The notes beneath the pieces are model-generated. The model saw only the letters and a list, made by a program, of their open reading frames with translations, had not been told where the DNA came from and did not search any database. Of a DNA stretch of 20,791 bases, positions 3,143-20,791 are shown one piece after another (position 1 is the stretch's first letter; the number at the start of each line of letters is the position of its first letter). The stretch is from positions 1 through 20,791 of the IMG/VR virus record IMGVR_UViG_2563366825_000026. One strand, written 5' to 3'. The position numbers were made by a program, and so were the translations under genes. This stretch comes from a virus. Taxonomy: Duplodnaviria > Heunggongvirae > Uroviricota > Caudoviricetes.

Positions 3143-5125
3143 TTATGCTGATTCCCGGTTTTCGTTAACTTTGACTGTGACCGTATCAAGCAGTACCGGA
3201 TACGTCGCTTTTGCCCCCGTGATATCTGTCAGCGTCAGCGTATCTGCTGTAAAGCCATCATTTGTCCACATCACCAGGTCAAACGCAGACTGCTCTGCAT
3301 CATCAATCACCGGCACCACTTTTTCGCTGTTATTTCCCGCAAAGCGGAAAACAACTGTATGCCAGTTATGGTCAAATGCCCCAAATGTGCCCAGTTGCGC
3401 ATTCGACTCCCCCTTGTGGTACATCAGATTCAGATTTGATGCATCCGTCTGAAGGAAGAAGGACGCCAGCATGCTGTTTGCTGTCGCGCCTGACGCCCAC
3501 TGCGACACCGGCCAGTACAGACCAAAGACAAACTGACCGTTAACCAGTTCGACACCCTCCGGGATCTTAAACCGCACGGCAATTTCACCTCCCTTACTGA
3601 GAAGATTTTTTGCCTCCTCCACCGCAACAGTACGGAACATCTTCCAGGAGGTCAGTTTACCCGGCTGTTTTTCCAGTCGCAGCGCCTTCCTGCCACTGTC
3701 ATCCGTCACAGTGCCTTTACCACCGGACGCATTCCACTGCTGCTCTGTCCATACACCACTGCCACTGTTCGCATCATATCCGGCCACCATTCTTGTTACG
3801 GCTTCAGTATGACCGCCTGCAGAAATACCTGCACCCTGCTGTTGCGTCGGACCCGCAGAGCCAGACTGTGCATCCCCCGTGGAGGCTGGCGTGGTCGCCA
3901 GCGGTGCAGACTGCCCGCTCAGGAACGGCAGCAAACGCCCGGCTCGCACCAGTATCTCTCCTGCCAGCCGATCTGAAACAATGCCTCTTCGCGCCCAGGA
4001 GCTGAAGTGCGTTTTACGAGCGGCTGTCGTCCAGTTACCATTACTGCGTGACGCGGCACCATAGTATCCCGCCGTGATAATGTCCGGATCTTCTGACGGC
4101 TCGTTTGTCGGCACATTCGCACCATGCTCATCCGTCATCAACGGCACAAAGTGAATATTCTGCGCCGCCTTGCCTTTATAGCCTCCGTAAACCGCCTCAT
4201 ACTGCACTGCATACTTCGCCTTCCAGTCGTACGTGGTGTCACCGCAAATCCACGGGACGCCGGACGTTGTCCCGCCAATACACTGGTCTGCAATATCTGC
4301 CAGGTCTGCACGGTATTTATTTACCATGGCAAGAAAAAGTGCATTGTGCTCTGCATGTCTCCCCGAACTGACATCTTTTTCCCCCTGCATCCAGATCACC
4401 GACAACAGCACGTTTTTCGGATTTTTCTTCAGGGCTGCACGCGTTCTGCTGACCAGGTCACGATACAACGGTTTATCCACCCCCCACAGGGAAGAGCCCG
4501 CTGTCGCACCCGACGCCTCATTAAACGCGCCCTCTGCTCCCGCAGTAAATCCCGAATCGCCACGTCCACACGGGACAAGAAGGATCCCCGCACGGGCAGG
4601 CATAAACGGCAGCAGTTTTTTGGCCACATGCAGGGCATGCCCCACACAGCCATACTGCCCTTTATTGAGGTCTGCTTTCGGGTGATTCAGATTACTCACG
4701 TCCTGCACATCATGCAGACAATGGTCTGCAGGAATAATGTCGTTATATGCACAGGCCGCACCGCCCGGTGTCACCGTGCTGCGACGCGCCAGTTGCTTAA
4801 TACGCGGGTCAGGACGATCATACGTATCCGGCAGCGGCAGCCCCTCGCCAAAAGACATCGAGTTGGACTGCCCGGCCAGCGCAATGACAAAGTAATATTC
4901 CGGTTCGCTGGTGGTGCTGATAACAGCGCCACCATCACCCGACGGTTGCACCACCACCGGTGTGGTGACATCACCTTCCGCCGCAATGGCCTGCATCAGG
5001 GTATAGGGCGTGATGGCGACAGGGCTGCCAAATGGCTGCCACCCCTCCTTCAGTTTTTGAGTCAGTCGCTCCGCAAGGTCTGACGGCGACGCCGCCCTGA
5101 CCACGTCATAGTGTTTAAATGTCAT
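3143..5125 (-). CDS. nanS: prophage-encoded sialate O-acetylesterase, NanS-p-like (N-terminal DUF1737-like region + SASA/SGNH esterase domain + C-terminal domain)
   Basis: 660 aa; ATG at 5125 with GGGAGG upstream. The FVIALAGQSNSMSFGEG block is the esterase-type GQSN motif. Size and architecture match the NanS-p proteins found just upstream of the lysis genes in Stx-type lambdoid prophages. Confidence 0.8.
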   Translation of the reverse strand: MTFKHYDVVRAASPSDLAERLTQKLKEGWQPFGSPVAITPYTLMQAIAAEGDVTTPVVVQPSGDGGAVISTTSEPEYYFVIALAGQSNSMSFGEGLPLPDTYDRPDPRIKQLARRSTVTPGGAACAYNDIIPADHCLHDVQDVSNLNHPKADLNKGQYGCVGHALHVAKKLLPFMPARAGILLVPCGRGDSGFTAGAEGAFNEASGATAGSSLWGVDKPLYRDLVSRTRAALKKNPKNVLLSVIWMQGEKDVSSGRHAEHNALFLAMVNKYRADLADIADQCIGGTTSGVPWICGDTTYDWKAKYAVQYEAVYGGYKGKAAQNIHFVPLMTDEHGANVPTNEPSEDPDIITAGYYGAASRSNGNWTTAARKTHFSSWARRGIVSDRLAGEILVRAGRLLPFLSGQSAPLATTPASTGDAQSGSAGPTQQQGAGISAGGHTEAVTRMVAGYDANSGSGVWTEQQWNASGGKGTVTDDSGRKALRLEKQPGKLTSWKMFRTVAVEEAKNLLSKGGEIAVRFKIPEGVELVNGQFVFGLYWPVSQWASGATANSMLASFFLQTDASNLNLMYHKGESNAQLGTFGAFDHNWHTVVFRFAGNNSEKVVPVIDDAEQSAFDLVMWTNDGFTADTLTLTDITGAKATYPVLLDTVTVKVNENRESA

Positions 5126-5348: not shown

Positions 5349-5696
5349 GTCCATAAGAAAGCCCCTCCGGAGAGGGGCTGGAGAGTGGCGCTATGTGCCA
5401 TTGCATGGTGCCGGGTGCCTCCCGGTGAGTTCAGTATCAGCACCTGAACCCGCACAGAAAGGATAAGGGTCGGTGACAAAACACCAGTTGCTGATTGCCC
5501 CTCCGCACAGGGGGATTCACCATGCCAGTTTCTTTTAACAAACTCCCCGCAAACCAGACAACAGTCAACCGCCTGAATTGTGAGGTATTTAAAAATTTCA
5601 ACGGGTAACTGATACCCTGCTAATCGCCTGATGCTTTCTTTTTCAGCAACGGGGAAGCAACAACCACCACACCCACCAGCCGCCCATTTACCACAA

Positions 5697-11170: not shown

Positions 11171-11391
11171 GCAGCACCTCCGAGATGCTTCATGTTTTTT
11201 CCGGAGCGAAAGGCTATAAGCGGCATACTGACGCGGTAATTACGGCCCAGCGGTTCACAAATCACCTTCTGACATTCACGGTCAACCAGGCTAACACGTA
11301 GAACATGCCCTGCAGGCGTGGTGTACCACTGACCCGGACGAGGACAACGGAAAGTATGATTGGTAAACCGTTTGAAAATATTCCGGATCAT
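11167..11391 (-). CDS. hypothetical protein (74 aa)
   Basis: ATG overlaps the Rha-protein stop (ATGA) and its stop overlaps the O-like start (ATGA), so it is translationally coupled on both sides. No family recognised. Confidence 0.4.
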   Translation of the reverse strand: MIRNIFKRFTNHTFRCPRPGQWYTTPAGHVLRVSLVDRECQKVICEPLGRNYRVSMPLIAFRSGKNMKHLGGAA

Positions 11392-12539
11392 TTGCGCCCC
11401 CTTACCTCTGAAGGGTTCAGCGACAAATTTATGAGACTGGCCAGTAGCGCCGCGTCGTTGATGCGGTCATACAGACTTACAGCCAGCGGGGATTCGGCTT
11501 TTGCCAACATGGGATAAAGCTGCTGCAGCCAGACCTGATGAATTGATGAAATGTAGGAATAGAGAACGCTGGCGTTATATGCAACGTCGCTCAGTACAGA
11601 GGGATTTGAAAGCTGTTTCTCCATCTGGTTAAAGGCATTGATGTATGCCTCTTTGAACCGGGCAGCACGTTTACCCGTGAAGCCCATGGCAAGAAACGCA
11701 AAACCGTCGCGGGTGATTTGGTAACAAGGGAGTTTGCGGCCTGATGCGTCGGTGTATTCACTTAACACAAAATTGTGTTCAGTAAATTCAGCGGAACATT
11801 CGAGGTTTCTAATTCTATCTAAAACCCGCTCATGCCGTTTAGTAAAGTAATTAGCTACTGCAAGAGATGTGGTGACAACGCGACCATTGATAATCGTGAT
11901 TTCAGGGTGAGATTGGGTTGGGAGAGTAGTCATGGTGACAGCCCCTATGTTGAATTCAATGAACTCACCACCAAGGCTTTCCACGACCATATAGGTGGTG
12001 AGACGTACAGGGGTGGAAATACCGGTCAACATAGAACCCGGCCCAACCGAAGTTGGCCCTGCACGCCCCACCATAATTTGGGCGTAACGATGCTCATGAC
12101 ACGAAAAAACCGCATGAGCGCGGTTGTGCTCTATATTGAATTTCGGGTTTCCACGCCCGGCACCCGCTTTATAAGGTGCCTGAACAGTGTAACGTCCCGG
12201 AATTGCAGAATCAATATGCTGGTGGTCCTTCACACTCAACAAAATCACGCCTGAATTTCCACAAAGGACTAAAGCACTCATGCGGGTAGTCTTTGCGAAG
12301 ATAGATAACGCGCTGTGTTTCTGGCTCCCAACGAATAACATGGACATAAAGCCCTCTTCCGTCACGAAACCAGCGGTTAAGTTCCTGCACAACTCGCCCC
12401 CCACAGTCAGGTAAAGTTCTCTGTGGTTACTTACAGCCAGGTGATTTGGTAATCTGCATTCATGCCGTAACAACAGGTGTTCAGCGACGCTGACCACCAG
12501 CTGTTGCGACAAACGGTTATTTGCCGTTAAACTATTCAT
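11388..12539 (-). CDS. Rha-domain phage regulatory protein with an N-terminal extension of about 200 aa of unknown function
   Basis: Residues from about 203 (MTTLPTQSHPEITIINGRVVTTSLAVANYFTKRHERVLDRIRNLECSAEF...DGFAFLAMGFTGKRAARFKEAYINAFNQME) match the Rha domain, which is usually N-terminal. An internal ATG at 11933 with an AGGGG SD could give a 181-aa Rha-only product. The 12539 ATG overlaps the upstream stop (ATGA), supporting the long form. Confidence 0.6.
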   Translation of the reverse strand: MNSLTANNRLSQQLVVSVAEHLLLRHECRLPNHLAVSNHRELYLTVGGELCRNLTAGFVTEEGFMSMLFVGSQKHSALSIFAKTTRMSALVLCGNSGVILLSVKDHQHIDSAIPGRYTVQAPYKAGAGRGNPKFNIEHNRAHAVFSCHEHRYAQIMVGRAGPTSVGPGSMLTGISTPVRLTTYMVVESLGGEFIEFNIGAVTMTTLPTQSHPEITIINGRVVTTSLAVANYFTKRHERVLDRIRNLECSAEFTEHNFVLSEYTDASGRKLPCYQITRDGFAFLAMGFTGKRAARFKEAYINAFNQMEKQLSNPSVLSDVAYNASVLYSYISSIHQVWLQQLYPMLAKAESPLAVSLYDRINDAALLASLINLSLNPSEVRGRK

Positions 12540-13427: not shown

Positions 13428-14102
13428 ATGAAAACAGTCCATGACATCCGGCGGTCTAACGCCAGAAAACTGAGAGATGGTGTTGGCGGGAATTCTTCCT
13501 TTGCCACCATGATTGATCGCGAGCCAACCCAGACCAGCAGGTTTATGGGAGATGGTGCTACTAAAAATATCGGTGACAGCATGGCACGGCACATCGAAAA
13601 ATGTTTCGACCTGCCTGTCGGATGGCTTGATCAAGAACACCAGACAACAAACATCACAAAAAAACCTGATGTTTCAATTACTAACAAACAAATAACGTTA
13701 GTCCCTGTCATATCATGGGTACAGGCCGGAGCATGGAAAGAAGTTGGCTATTCTGAGGTTGATTTGAGCACAGCAGAAACTTATCCCTGCCCTGTACCCT
13801 GTGGCGAAATGACTTATATCTTGCGGGTGATTGGTGATTCAATGATTGATGAGTACCGCCCGGGAGACATGATTTTTGTAGATCCTGAAGTCCCTGCCTG
13901 CCACGGTGACGACGTTATTGCATTGATGCACGATACAGGCGAAACCACCTTTAAGCGGTTGATAGAAGATGGAACACAGCGTTACCTCAAAGCATTAAAC
14001 CCAAACTGGCCTGAACCTTACATTAAGATCAACGGTAATTGCTCTATAATTGGCACAGTAATTTTCTCAGGAAAACCAAGAAGATACAAAATAAAGGCCT
14101 AA
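13428..14102 (+). CDS. cI: CI-like prophage repressor with N-terminal HTH and C-terminal LexA-like S24 peptidase (autocleavage) domain
   Basis: 224 aa. XRE-like HTH (SFATMIDREPTQTSRFMG) and C-terminal VIGDSMIDEY...TFKRL Ser/Lys dyad typical of LexA/cI-type self-cleaving repressors. Followed by a strong terminator. Confidence 0.85.
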   Translation: MKTVHDIRRSNARKLRDGVGGNSSFATMIDREPTQTSRFMGDGATKNIGDSMARHIEKCFDLPVGWLDQEHQTTNITKKPDVSITNKQITLVPVISWVQAGAWKEVGYSEVDLSTAETYPCPVPCGEMTYILRVIGDSMIDEYRPGDMIFVDPEVPACHGDDVIALMHDTGETTFKRLIEDGTQRYLKALNPNWPEPYIKINGNCSIIGTVIFSGKPRRYKIKA

Positions 14103-14113
14103 TCAATATTTAT

Positions 14114-14137
14114 AACCTGCTTCGGCAGGTTTTTTTA
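14114..14137 (+). terminator. intrinsic terminator after the repressor gene
   Basis: Stem AACCTGC (14114-14120), loop TTCG, stem GCAGGTT (14125-14131), then a T-run (14131-14137). Confidence 0.7.
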
Positions 14138-14140
14138 TAC

Positions 14141-14169
14141 TTGACAATGTACCCTTGAGATACATAATG
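14141..14169 (+). promoter_or_regulatory. PL-like early-left promoter with overlapping operator
   Basis: TTGACA (14141-14146) - 16 nt - CATAAT (14163-14168). The spacer carries ATGTACCCTTGAGATACAT (14147-14165), the same ATGTAC-N7-TACAT palindrome type as the operators next to cro. Confidence 0.6.
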
Positions 14170-14582
14170 TATCTAAAAGAAACATGTCACAGGCAAGATT
14201 AAACAAAATTTGGTTGTAACACGGCGTATGGCACATGCGTCGTTAGCGGTCTGGGGACGTTAAAGGGGACAATCCACTCCTTGCTCGGGCAAACAAACCA
14301 GGTAGCCGGAATGTGCAAGTCAATGAGGATGCTGATAAGACGCCTAACCAGCGTGGCGATTCGGTTTGACGCCTGGGAAGAGACCAGGACGCAACGATGA
14401 GAGCATTTATGGAGCCGCGACAAAGTGTGGTGCCGTAACTGGCTAAGTGCTCTCAGCGTTGTGGTGAATGCGCAGGCTGATGCGCGAAAGACATTGCAGC
14501 TATTGCGGAAAAGAGCTGTTCGGCGGGGCAATTAAACGCCCGTGAGAGTCTGAAATAACCGCAAGCCGGAGATCAGCACCGG

Positions 14583-14651
14583 TCACCACAACAGCCACTG
14601 CTTTGGCGGTACCAGTTTGTACACTTGCTTCCGGCTGGTACCGCTCTTTTT
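14583..14651 (+). ncRNA. candidate DicF-like small RNA 3' element / intrinsic terminator at the end of an ORF-free PL leader
   Basis: Perfect 10-bp stem GCGGTACCAG (14606-14615) / CTGGTACCGC (14635-14644), 19-nt loop, then TCTTTTT. The 5' arm with flank (GGTCAC...TTTGGCGGTACCAGTTTGTAC) resembles my memory of E. coli DicF (GGTGACGTTTGGCGGTATCAGTTTTAC). Identity unverified. Confidence 0.35.
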
Positions 14652-14652
14652 A

Positions 14653-14739
14653 CAAAACAGAGAAGAGCATCACCGGACGACGGGCTCATAACCCAATCCA
14701 TCCGGGCGGCTGCCACCGCAGGTGTTCTTCTCTGTTTTG
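14653..14739. repeat. 14-bp perfect inverted repeat flanking a 59-bp GC-rich core
   Basis: CAAAACAGAGAAGA (14653-14666) and its exact reverse complement TCTTCTCTGTTTTG (14726-14739); inner hairpin CCGGA...TCCGG. Lies between the terminator and the first early-left gene. Confidence 0.55.
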
Positions 14740-14788
14740 TGGAGAAACCAACCGACCTTGCAGGGTCGATATGATGAGGAGCAGCAAA

Positions 14789-15151
14789 ATGGCTAGCGTA
14801 CGCAGTACTGATGTGCAGGTATTTATCGTAGAACTGGACGGCGGCGTATTTGAAACCAAACTCGGCGCAGTTCTCAGTGAAGTCGCTTCCGGTGTGATGA
14901 ACACGAAAAACAAAGGTAAAGTCTCGGTCAATCTGGACATCGAACCGTTTGATGAGAACCGTGTGAAAATCAAACACAAACTCTCATATGTTCGCCCGAC
15001 TAACCGCGGGAAAATTTCCGAAGAAGACACCACCGAAACGCCGATGTATGTCAATCGAGGTGGTCGCCTGACTATTCTGCAGGAAGACCAGGGACAATTA
15101 CTAACTCTTGCCGGTGAACCTGACGGAAAACTCCGCGCAGCAGGTCATTAA
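14789..15151 (+). CDS. hypothetical early-left protein (120 aa); yfdP-like by position and length
   Basis: ATG at 14789 with GAGGAG 7 nt upstream; MASVRSTDVQVFIVELDGGVFETKLGAVLSEV... First gene after the PL leader. The track's longer version (from 14603) runs through the hairpin region. Confidence 0.6.
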   Translation: MASVRSTDVQVFIVELDGGVFETKLGAVLSEVASGVMNTKNKGKVSVNLDIEPFDENRVKIKHKLSYVRPTNRGKISEEDTTETPMYVNRGGRLTILQEDQGQLLTLAGEPDGKLRAAGH

Positions 15152-15216: not shown

Positions 15217-16041
15217 ATGTCTCAGAACTTAGACGCAACCGCAATTAATCAAATCCATGCCCTTATTTCTGCTCAGGGTGTTAATGAAATTATCAGTAAG
15301 ATTGGTGCCGATGCTGTGGCATTGCCTGAGAATTTCCGCATTCATGATCTGGAAAAATTTAATTTAAATCGCTTCCGTTTCCGTGGTGCGCTTTCCACTG
15401 CCAGCATCGATGACTTTACCCGTTATTCTAAAGATCTTGCAGATGAAGGCACCCGCTGCTTTATCGATGCCGATAATATGCGTGCCGTCAGTGTGCTTAA
15501 CCTGGGTACTATTGGTGAACCAGGTCACGCAGATAACACCGCCACACTCAAACTGAAAAAGACAGCACCGTTCTCTGCTCTGTTGTCTGTTAACGGCGAG
15601 CGTAACTCCCAGAAGTCACTGGCAGAATGGATTGAAGACTGGGCCGACTATCTTGTGGGCTTTGATGCTAATGGTGACGCTATTAAGGCAACAAAAGCGG
15701 CTGCGGCAGTCCGTAAAATCACGATTGAAGCAAACCAGACCGCTGATTTTGAAGATAATGACTTCAGCGGCAAACGCTCTTTGATGGAGTCTGTCGAAGC
15801 GAAGACCAAAGACATTATGCCAGTGGTATTTGAATTTAAATGCGTTCCGTTTGAAGGCCTGAAAGAACGTCCGTTTAAATTACGCCTCAGCATTATCACT
15901 GGCGATCGTCCTGTACTGGTTCTGCGCATTATTCAGCTGGAAGCAGTGCAGGAAGAAATGGCTAACGAATTTCGTGATCTGCTTGTTGAGAAATTTAAAG
16001 ACAGCAAAGTAGAAACCTTTATTGGTACTTTCACCGCCTGA
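15217..16041 (+). CDS. yfdQ: YfdQ-like protein (DUF2303 family), 274 aa
   Basis: Length (274 aa) and position immediately upstream of an HD-domain YfdR-like gene match the CPS-53/KpLE1 yfdQ-yfdR-yfdS block as I remember it. GTGAGGA SD. Family assignment from memory and synteny. Confidence 0.6.
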
Positions 16042-19477: not shown

Positions 19478-20791
19478 ATGGATAAAGTCAAATATCCAAC
19501 AGGCGTCGAAAACCACGGCGGCACATTACGCATCTGGTTTAATTTTAAAGGTAAACGTGTCAGGGAAAATCTTGGTGTCCCTGACACTGCCAAGAACAGG
19601 AAGATCGCCGGGGAACTGCGGACATCGGTATGTTTTGCCATCCGCACAGGAAGCTTTGATTATGCTGCACAGTTCCCTGACTCCCCCAACCTTCAGGCTT
19701 TTGGGGTAAGTAAAAAAGAAATTACGGTGAAGGAACTTGAAGAAAAGTGGCTGGATCTGAAACGAATGGAAATCTCTGCAAATGCATTCAATCGCTATGA
19801 ATCCGTTGCAAGAACGATGGTTTCGAAAATTGGAGGCAGTAGACTGGTGTCATCGGTAACCAAAGAGGAATTGCTGTATATCAGGAAAGATTTGCTAACC
19901 GGGTATCAGAATTCAACGAAAAACAAAGCAGCAGCAAAAGGACGGAGCGTCGTTACTGTAAATTATTACATGACGACAATCGCTGGAATGTTTCAGTTTG
20001 CTGCAGATCACGGTTACTTAGAAGCAAATCCCTTCCAGGGAATTAAGCCTCTTAAAAGAGCCAGGGCAGAGCCAGATCCGCTAACTCGTGACGAATTTAT
20101 TCGCCTGATAGATGCTTGCCGACATCAGCAGACGAAAAACCTGTGGTCATTGGCTGTGTACACAGGAATGCGTCACGGTGAACTGGTCTCCCTGGCCTGG
20201 GAAGATATCGATCTGAAGGCAGGAACAATTACCATCAGGCGCAATTATACGAAACTTGGTGAGTTCACTCTACCGAAAACTGAAGCAAGCACAAACAGGG
20301 TTGTGCACCTTATCCAGCCCGCTATCAGTGTCCTGAAAAATCAGGCTGAAATGACAAGACTGGGTAAGCAGTACAACATCAAGGTGCAACTACGTGAATA
20401 TGGACGTTCAGTGAACCATGAATGTACTTTCGTGTTTAACCCTCAAGTGGTTAGAAAAAGCGAACAGGTAGGTTTTGTCTACAAAGTCGATTCTGTAGGT
20501 GACTCATGGGAAACAGCCATTAAGCGTGCAGGGATCAGGCATCGAAAGGCATACCAGTCACGACACACTTATGCGTGCTGGTCATTATCTGCCGGAGCAA
20601 ACCCAAGCTTCATTGCCAGCCAGATGGGCCATGCAAGTGCCCAGATGGTATTCAATGTATACGGAGCATGGATGACTGACAGCAATGCAGAACAGATCGC
20701 AATGCTGAATCAGAAGCTGACAGATTATGTCCCAATGATGCCCCATAGTCACCAAAGTGACACCAGAGGCTTATTAAAATCAGTAAGTTAA
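19478..20791 (+). CDS. int: tyrosine site-specific integrase (lambda Int family)
   Basis: 437 aa with TGGAGGT SD. Catalytic-domain signatures (R...HxxR...Y: RHGELVSLAWEDID, SRHTYACWSL, MVFNVYGAWM). The stop codon is the last three bases of the window. Confidence 0.9.
   Translation: MDKVKYPTGVENHGGTLRIWFNFKGKRVRENLGVPDTAKNRKIAGELRTSVCFAIRTGSFDYAAQFPDSPNLQAFGVSKKEITVKELEEKWLDLKRMEISANAFNRYESVARTMVSKIGGSRLVSSVTKEELLYIRKDLLTGYQNSTKNKAAAKGRSVVTVNYYMTTIAGMFQFAADHGYLEANPFQGIKPLKRARAEPDPLTRDEFIRLIDACRHQQTKNLWSLAVYTGMRHGELVSLAWEDIDLKAGTITIRRNYTKLGEFTLPKTEASTNRVVHLIQPAISVLKNQAEMTRLGKQYNIKVQLREYGRSVNHECTFVFNPQVVRKSEQVGFVYKVDSVGDSWETAIKRAGIRHRKAYQSRHTYACWSLSAGANPSFIASQMGHASAQMVFNVYGAWMTDSNAEQIAMLNQKLTDYVPMMPHSHQSDTRGLLKSVS

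Follow-up and report, generated by a model that had tools for sequence, protein, structure and literature searches.

What is a perfect inverted repeat, its arms held apart by a core of 59 nt, doing immediately in front of the first early-left gene of a lambdoid prophage? The question is raised by the virus record IMGVR_UViG_2563366825_000026 (Caudoviricetes), whose positions 1 to 20,791 – the whole stretch of DNA analysed, referred to here as the window – contain such a repeat. An original prediction, made from the letters of the sequence, had noticed it and proposed that it might form a long RNA hairpin (for example, an RNase III site), bind a protein as DNA or represent a miniature element with terminal inverted repeats. 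The repeat is very probably the closing helix, P1, of a conserved 89-nt three-way-junction RNA read from the + strand (14652–14740), and the 59-nt core – overlooked at the time – is the conserved, functional-looking part, containing the anticodon arm of the initiator tRNA. The best explanation overall, to which we would assign a probability of about 0.5, is that the element is a tRNA-like RNA module made in lytic growth, with its long stem serving as an RNase III site.

The repeat itself is much as it had been described. The 14-nt arm CAAAACAGAGAAGA lies at 14653–14666 and its exact reverse complement at 14726–14739; the perfect arms are in fact one base longer than first noted (15 nt, 14652–14666 and 14726–14740), and the repeat continues imperfectly up to 25 nt with 84% complementarity. 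The core (14667–14725, 59 nt) is GC-rich as stated, with 66% G+C compared with 49% for the window, and does contain the nested 5-bp hairpin (CCGGA at 14673–14677 and TCCGG at 14701–14705), just as the element does precede the first early-left gene, a yfdP-like frame with its ATG at 14789, 48 nt past the repeat. Among perfect inverted repeats with loops of at most 100 nt this is the longest in the window, the runner-up having 12 nt. The claim that it is unlikely to have arisen by chance also holds, in that 200 dinucleotide-preserving shuffles yielded a maximum of 13 nt (3/200) and none reached 14 nt.

Read from the + strand, the RNA folds into a three-way junction with a minimum free energy (MFE) of −45.5 kcal/mol (z = −7.3 relative to shuffles), and the same fold is kept within 211 nt of context. 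Its parts, and the two small features that follow it, are these:

14652–14671, + strand: 5′ strand of P1, ACAAAACAGAGAAGAGCATC; the left arm of the repeat plus five pairs
14673–14705, + strand: P2 hairpin, CCGGACGACGGGCTCATAACCCAATCCATCCGG; fold as RNA, CCGGACGACGGGCUCAUAACCCAAUCCAUCCGG
14682–14694, + strand: P2 apex, GGGCTCATAACCC; equal to the initiator tRNA anticodon stem-loop
14706–14719, + strand: P3 hairpin, GCGG CTGCCA CCGC
14721–14740, + strand: 3′ strand of P1, GGTGTTCTTCTCTGTTTTGT; the right arm of the repeat plus five pairs
14741–14748, + strand: box GGAGAAAC, directly after P1
14753–14768, + strand: P4 hairpin, CGACCT TGCA GGGTCG, past the element and ahead of the ribosome-binding site

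In what follows, the long-stem form present in the window is called class I, and a form with a short stem and an NCCA end, described below, is called class II. P1 comprises 20 bp on its own and 25 pairs in the context fold, where the U-run of P0 – the terminator-like hairpin in front of the element – pairs with GGAGA after it; in all distinct class I copies its length is 19–27 bp. P2 is the most conserved part of the motif, and P3 keeps its place and its pairing among relatives, with a sequence that varies and a length from 14 to ~40 nt. The box takes the form GU(AU/AC)GGRGAW after P1 in 113 of 113 distinct early-leader copies, and P4 is kept as a hairpin with other stem sequences and a GCAG-type loop (GGCGGTGGCAGCCGCC, GCGCCGGTGCAGAGGCGT and similar). 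The element is not itself an intrinsic terminator, since GGAGAAAC rather than a U-run comes directly after the hairpin. A leader mini-ORF (open reading frame) starting from the GUG or AUG in GU(AU)GGAGAAAC was considered and rejected: it has no Shine–Dalgarno (SD) sequence, its peptide varies in length and sequence, and some copies have ACG instead. A search within the window for a pairing target of the P2 loop gave chance-level 8–9-mers only.

That this fold is under selection as RNA is indicated by its relatives. A covariance model built on 18 diverse copies has a single match in the window, worth 106 bits on the + strand versus 40 bits on the − strand. Among 71 distinct model-aligned class I sequences, 93.8% of cells pair, compared with 39–53% when the partners are slid by 1–3 columns; ten pairs have changed on both sides (115 cells), supporting P1, P2 and P3, and the covariation score was reached in 0 of 500 shuffles – figures that are supportive rather than formal probabilities, given that the alignment was fitted to the model and the sequences are kin. 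For P1 itself, 95% of cells are paired and 6 of the 20 pairs are changed on both sides. Compensatory examples include C–G to A–U, G–C to C–G and A–U to G–C in P1, G–C to A–U at the base of P2, and pairs 58:104 and 59:103 in P3. The proposed long RNA hairpin thus holds up, its arms pairing and covarying on the + strand and keeping their length in every early-leader relative, and neither of the signs by which a chance palindrome would be recognised – absence at homologous positions and want of covariation – was found. Conserved wobbles occur on the + strand only (19:109 is U–G in 65 of 71 sequences and 3:125 is G–U in 21), which points to an RNA read from that strand.

Relatives differ in element length by 1–3 nt, which marks the stretch as non-coding; the overlapping ORF calls – window 14603–15151 (+) and 14573–14977 (−), mEp460_036 and STMMW_20251 – are almost certainly wrong, and none of the overlapping calls has family support. 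A further call through the structured leader, at 14199–14531 (−), is a probable annotation artefact of the same kind; the 110-amino-acid − strand ORF has no Pfam or PHROG match. Between E. coli and Salmonella phages, only positions 47–153 of a 201-nt query (window 14646–14752) are alignable, and this island comprises the element with a few flanking bases. Among the 113 early-leader copies, genes of at least four unrelated types come first downstream; even so, the element and the box are kept in all 113 and the terminator in at least 103. When IMG/VR loci were fetched by way of the YfdQ protein, without any RNA pattern, 80 of 80 carried the element ~535 nt upstream.

The element is widespread. 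BLAST against phage records found the region in 70 of them, and a pattern scan of IMG/VR plus one genome per species gave well over 100 copies. True copies all come from Enterobacterales – Escherichia, Shigella, Salmonella, Citrobacter, Enterobacter, Klebsiella and Kosakonia, with further genera including Leclercia, Mixta, Phytobacter and Erwinia – and scan matches in other phyla were discarded as chance occurrences inside coding DNA. Of 5426 complete E. coli genomes, 2492 (46%) carry it, at 3321 places of which 3311 are chromosomal, with a median of one copy per genome and a maximum of five, and wherever the context was read it was prophage sequence of the SfV/ST64B/mEp460 type. Among the E. 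coli matches listed, it is annotated either with no feature or as protein-coding, never as non-coding RNA (ncRNA), and no RNA-gene name for it was found in those RefSeq E. coli genomes and phage records whose annotation was read. Rfam 15 gives no match at 14600–14800 at gathering thresholds and noise only at E ≤ 10, nor any match to the element in the ST64B, phiNP and Flotzy loci, and the searchable full-text literature, queried for phage RNAs that are tRNA-like or mimic the initiator as well as for the sequence itself, yielded nothing on the element. The K-12 prophage CPS-53 does not serve as a model, the element having been deleted there together with the immunity region: its homology to the window (L129 9200–9620) begins only ~24 nt before the yfdP ATG, and TTTTGACGGGTCAGA-type iteron-like repeats by yfdO stand in place of the element, leader and immunity region.

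What the core resembles is an initiator tRNA. The P2 apex GGGCUCAUAACCC is identical to the anticodon stem-loop of E. coli tRNAfMet, and CGACGGGCUCAUAACCC matches tRNAfMet positions 25–41 at 16 of 17 nt, including the three consecutive G–C pairs and the CUCAUAA loop that characterise this arm; below them an internal loop interrupts the stem. The tRNAfMet sequence used was verified by its presence at 100% identity in all 5426 E. coli genomes, in ~4 copies each, annotated as tRNA-Met. Scans for non-CAU triplets gave eight loci, of which one (L239) is a chance match and seven are true copies with UAU, AAU or CCU; none of the variants is at the third position, and CAU copies number at least 120.

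A second line of evidence comes from distant BLAST matches of the core, which adjoin annotated tRNA genes in Klebsiella phages. This class II form is carried by GZ7, Chronis, 12 more Klebsiella phages, a Raoultella genome and 72 E. coli genomes. It consists of P2 (CCUGAUGACGGGCUCAUAAUCCAAUCCAUCAGG) and a P3 hairpin closed by 6–7 bp (UGGCCUG/CAGGCC(A/G)) and followed directly by CCA, so that a tRNA-like short acceptor, discriminator and CCA – here (A/G)CCA – is found in class II only. The unit, 71–72 nt long, starts 5 nt past the CCA of a tRNA-Asn, tRNA-Arg or tRNA-Phe gene, between the Q antiterminator gene and the lysis genes, with a terminator downstream. Its proportions would be tRNA-like, P1 and P3 stacking into 12–13 bp, comparable to an acceptor/T-arm helix, and P2 approximating the length of an anticodon/D stack. 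Taking both classes together, P1 and P2 are 95.7% paired with seven doubly changed pairs; CCGGA/UCCGG of class I corresponds to CCUGA/UCAGG of class II, and the P1 sequences are wholly different. P3 differs between the classes in sequence and length and always folds; MAFFT failed to align it across them, and its cross-class covariation rests on individual folds. The two cores are probably homologous.

Several other RNAs touch on this resemblance. Pantoea phage PA-1 (L007 2497–2590) has the same P2 core on an imperfect ~11-bp stem in its late region, and a Pantoea metagenome-assembled genome (MAG; L228) has it after a terminator, with a 7-bp closing stem without CCA. In the Gammaproteobacteria MAG DTU037 (L214 3655–3730), a stand-alone, gene-like unit with promoter and terminator combines the 5′ half of an initiator tRNA (acceptor, D arm and anticodon arm) with AATCC and a 3′ acceptor strand plus ACCA, the T arm being missing; it draws no ARAGORN call and has the CCC|AATCC junction in common with the element, of which it could be a relative, or the likeness could be a coincidence. 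Two suggested kin were set aside: 933W ileZ, a tRNA-Ile with a CAU anticodon, matches as a possible ancestor only in the loop, plus a weak 14/17 to its T arm, and the M3 RNA of phi80 – a classic RNase P substrate – is annotated as an oop homologue near cII and is thus unrelated.

How and when the element might be made is suggested by its surroundings, which belong to a lambdoid prophage of the SfV/ST64B/mEp460/cdtI/Stx2c type and represent its early region:

11388–12539, − strand: Rha/Ash, 383 amino acids
12536–13105, − strand: CII
13428–14102, + strand: S24 CI-type repressor gene
14114–14131: terminator after the repressor gene
14141–14168, + strand: pL-like sigma-70 promoter (TTGACA, 16-nt spacer, CATAAT), 11/12 consensus matches
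14606–14651, + strand: P0, terminator-like hairpin GCGGTACCAG...CTGGTACCGC followed by a TCTTTTT run; its last base is the one just before the element
14776–14781, + strand: Shine–Dalgarno sequence GAGGAG
14789 (ATG) to 15151 (stop), + strand: yfdP-like gene, first early-left; phrog_204, E = 2.5e-48
15217–16041, + strand: yfdQ/DUF2303

The pL-like promoter, surrounded by operator-like repeats just past the repressor gene and its terminator, is the presumed start of the leader transcript, judging by its sequence, and none of the + strand ORFs in the ~600 nt downstream of it matches a family. At the P0 position, at least 103 of the 113 distinct early-leader relatives have a stable hairpin followed by a T-run. 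The + strand operon then runs from the yfdP-like gene through yfdQ/DUF2303 and a YfdR-like phosphohydrolase on to the integrase at 19478. This layout would restrict transcription of the element to lytic development, and there to polymerases that have read through P0. Expression data exist for Salmonella D23580, where transcription of the ST64B leader region is seen and rises in response to peroxide and nitric oxide (PMC7067206), and where the ORF call that holds the element (STMMW_20251) has transcripts per million (TPM) values 3- to 70-fold above those of the operon's next gene (PMC7067206); they lend the element weak support.

The remainder of the leader contains further structures. A second long conserved hairpin, CAACGATGAGAGC...GCTCTCAGCGTTG followed by TGGTGAATGCG, lies at window 14392–14461 (+), and its architecture recurs in ST64B, phiNP and Flotzy with differing stem sequences, such that the entire 0.5–0.9 kb leader looks like a string of conserved RNA structures. 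Just 5′ of P0 there recurs the hairpin-plus-CACCA motif of STnc100 (CCGGGAGGCACCCGG CACCA; late pR′ leader; window 5349–5554 (−)), as GCCGGAGATCAGCACCGGTCACCACAAC in the window (14565–14592 (+)), CCGGGAGGCACCCGGCACCACAAC in ST64B and GGTGGAGGCACCACCGCCACAAC in Flotzy, with covarying stems; it is a candidate antitermination or regulatory site common to the early-left and late leaders of these N-less phages. ST64B, phiNP and Flotzy also have in common a ~70-nt pL-proximal block (GCGAACAGGCAGGACGCCCACGAAGTAGCCGCCGGTGGCATACGAATGACCGGATGATTCGC; L004 ~1925–2000, L005 ~1830–1900, L006 ~2060–2130) that is absent from the window and that sits where putL does in HK022, with no similarity to the HK022 sequence. 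A mosaic joint is apparent at window 14576–14584, many E. coli phages matching only rightwards from ~14576 or 14584: the shared rightward part consists of the terminator, the element and the early-left genes, and the pL-proximal leader belongs to the immunity module. Further away, Rfam matches to C4 antisense RNA (82 bits, 11991–12078 (−)) and isrK (62 bits, 12103–12179 (−)) lie inside the Rha/Ash ORF (11388–12539), the same part of which is spanned by PHROG and Pfam models; either the two RNAs sit within coding sequence or the ORF has been miscalled in its 5′ part.

Taken together, these features suggest a mechanism in which the functional unit would be the P2+P3 core common to all forms and the closing stem its ‘packaging’. 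The class I element would be carried on a long, ORF-free pL leader transcript after P0 read-through. RNase III acts on continuous double-stranded RNA helices of ~20 bp or more, a length that P1, at ~20–25 bp, attains; because this stem is far longer than the junction needs and fits the substrate length of the enzyme, we infer that RNase III cuts it, a proposal that we regard as evenly poised. Such cleavage would free a small tRNA-like RNA and, at the same time, sever the structured leader from the early-left mRNA. Class II, in view of its position in tRNA operons, its short stem and its NCCA end, would instead be matured by tRNA-processing enzymes into a small stable RNA. A host factor might then mistake the released RNA for the initiator tRNA's anticodon arm, in which case the RNA could serve, for instance, as a decoy. 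Because the 24-nt stretch that holds the exact arm is near-invariant, recognition by a factor reading that arm is suggested, with an anticodon nuclease such as VapC, MetRS and the 30S P site with IF3 as candidates; a passage in PMC10264068 cites cleavage of tRNAfMet in its anticodon stem-loop by VapC of Shigella, Salmonella and E. coli. That the RNA works in trans as a mimic of tRNAfMet is a tentative suggestion and, as matters stand, an unlikely one. Still more speculative, and improbable in our estimation, are two specific versions of it: that a lytic-growth mimic of the initiator anticodon arm – cut out by RNase III in class I or produced from a tRNA operon in class II – acts as a decoy or inhibitor of a host factor such as VapC, or that the CCA-ended class II form is a minimal, D-arm-less, nuclease-resistant initiator tRNA.

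A number of observations weigh against a tRNA-like module released by RNase III. The window copy has no CCA end, its 20-bp stem being followed by GGAGAAAC; ARAGORN makes no tRNA call anywhere in the window, nor at the class II copies; and even at E ≤ 10 neither the window region nor a class II copy is hit by Rfam's tRNA model. On these three counts, the element does not qualify as a canonical tRNA. The relatives, for the most part, were fetched with a pattern that lies inside P2, by which the invariance of P2 is inflated, and pattern-free retrieval, by BLAST or a protein anchor, yields mainly close relatives; common descent of the sequences makes the shuffle controls look more significant than they are. 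In ST64B, other parts of the ORF call or attenuation could be the source of the TPM excess, and cleavage by RNase III and action in trans are steps that we infer. A role purely in cis – in leader folding, protection from Rho or mRNA stability – is a possible alternative.

This last idea can be stated as a reading of its own: the element would be purely a cis-acting leader structure, an RNase III site, comparable to that in the lambda N leader, or a stability or folding element of the early-left operon, whose core has no function of its own. The conserved 20–25-bp length of P1, its place just ahead of a long operon's first gene with a terminator on its other side and the chain of conserved hairpins that makes up the whole leader all fit this, and we consider it possible, if on balance doubtful: it leaves unexplained why P2 is far more conserved than P1 and why the P2+P3 core reappears with a 6–7-bp stem and CCA in the tRNA clusters of other phages. 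A candidate cis interaction, an anti-SD pairing that bridges the element in the MFE fold of the window, is not conserved (−13.0 kcal/mol for cognate versus −13.1 kcal/mol for non-cognate combinations across 70 loci). The same tRNA-cluster copies with their CCA ends, together with the 16/17-nt identity to the tRNAfMet anticodon arm and the existence elsewhere of a T-arm-less initiator-like gene (L214), might be taken to mean that the element is a decayed tRNA gene, a functionless relic of a phage tRNA(CAU) or initiator tRNA in which the repeat is a historical accident. Pseudogenes lose their pairing, however, and here compensatory changes uphold the helices across 71 sequences and two architectures; the element is moreover the part that stays conserved where E. 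coli and Salmonella phages otherwise diverge, and it is found in every one of the protein-anchored loci and in nearly half of E. coli genomes, which makes this reading very unlikely.

An antitermination signal is something that these phages clearly need, given the terminators within their leader, and the position of the element in the leader of a long operon, with no N gene seen between pL and the first gene, and of one class II copy in a late leader could point to a put- or nut-like site, whose nascent RNA would modify RNA polymerase for processive read-through of the terminators of the early-left operon. Yet the element comes after the terminator P0, not before it, and class II copies have a terminator of their own ~80 nt downstream. 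The window holds a single copy without a right-operon partner, so that the lambda-type arrangement of boxA and boxB in both operons is not seen; there is no conserved boxA, the boxA-like CGCTCTTTTTA of the window not being kept in relatives; and there is neither similarity to the HK022 region nor agreement with the architecture of put RNA. We hold this reading, too, to be highly unlikely. Of the DNA-level features first proposed – a palindromic protein-binding site or a miniature inverted-repeat transposable element – the perfect 15-bp terminal inverted repeats might seem suggestive, and symmetric changes in the arms would equally preserve a DNA palindrome. The conserved G–T ‘pairs’ fit RNA only, 59 bp separate the arms, the covariance model scores the two strands very differently, the internal helices P2 and P3 covary and the core recurs without long arms, all of which makes the protein-binding palindrome unlikely. 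The miniature element fails on its distribution: rather than dispersed copies at unrelated sites with target-site duplications, there is typically one copy per genome in the same place in the same kind of prophage, fixed relative to yfdQ in all 80 loci and accompanied by no mobile-element annotation. As a whole, an explanation at the DNA level is extremely improbable.

The element, then, is a widespread tRNA-like, structured phage leader RNA, unnamed in Rfam and in the annotation read. It is found in nearly half of complete E. coli genomes, including in Shiga-toxin and Shigella serotype-converting phages, and marks a family of lambdoid phages whose early-left operon opens with a 0.5–0.9 kb chain of RNA structures instead of the N gene. 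At a minimum, it deserves an Rfam family and a correction of the overlapping ORF annotations. Beyond that, it offers a testable handle on tRNA mimicry in phage–host conflict and on RNase III in prophage induction, relevant to the biology of Shiga-toxin phages; a mimic, decoy or minimal initiator tRNA, if such it proves to be, would constitute a new kind of RNA-based counter-defence.

Among known systems, STnc1310 is an ncRNA of ST64B that is induced with the prophage and comes from the same pL leader and strand as the element's relative (PMC7067206). It lies ~280 nt upstream (L004 ~2153–2226 versus 2507–2595) and ends at an internal terminator, and so represents a different part of the leader. 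The put RNA of HK022 is likewise cis-encoded and structured, and likewise sits in the early leader of a lambdoid phage without N at the usual place. It consists of two open stem-loops directly after pL that act before the terminators (PMC9378689), whereas the element is enclosed and follows a terminator; a comparison of the HK022 early region with the window and with the ST64B leader showed no similarity, and homology between the two RNAs was rejected.

In the helix that closes it, the element resembles the lambda N-leader site, the R sites of T7 and the metY–nusA–infB leader, with which it shares a long, near-perfect RNA helix, some two turns in length, that lies in untranslated leader sequence, with regulatory RNA on the promoter side and the first gene beyond. 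RNase III cuts the lambda N leader and the metY–nusA–infB leader, parting leader from mRNA. P1 differs from such processing hairpins in that what it closes is no simple hairpin or internal loop but a conserved three-way junction, and in that the core is more conserved than the helix and also occurs without it; cleavage is here a prediction. With tRNAfMet itself, the element has the anticodon arm in common, lacking a D arm or T loop and having, in the window, an ‘acceptor’ of 20 bp. The thrS operator, the tRNA-like domain of tmRNA, the bacterial Y-RNA YrlA, viral tRNA-like structures (TLS) and mascRNA are all tRNA-like structures or mimics, and each, like the element, sets partial tRNA architecture within another RNA. 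In class II, the ~12–13-bp stem plus hairpin, the NCCA end and the tRNA-operon position suggest maturation of the tRNA type. Compared with YrlA and tmRNA, the element does without the T-loop/D-loop elbow and mimics instead the anticodon arm of the initiator, in two forms of packaging.

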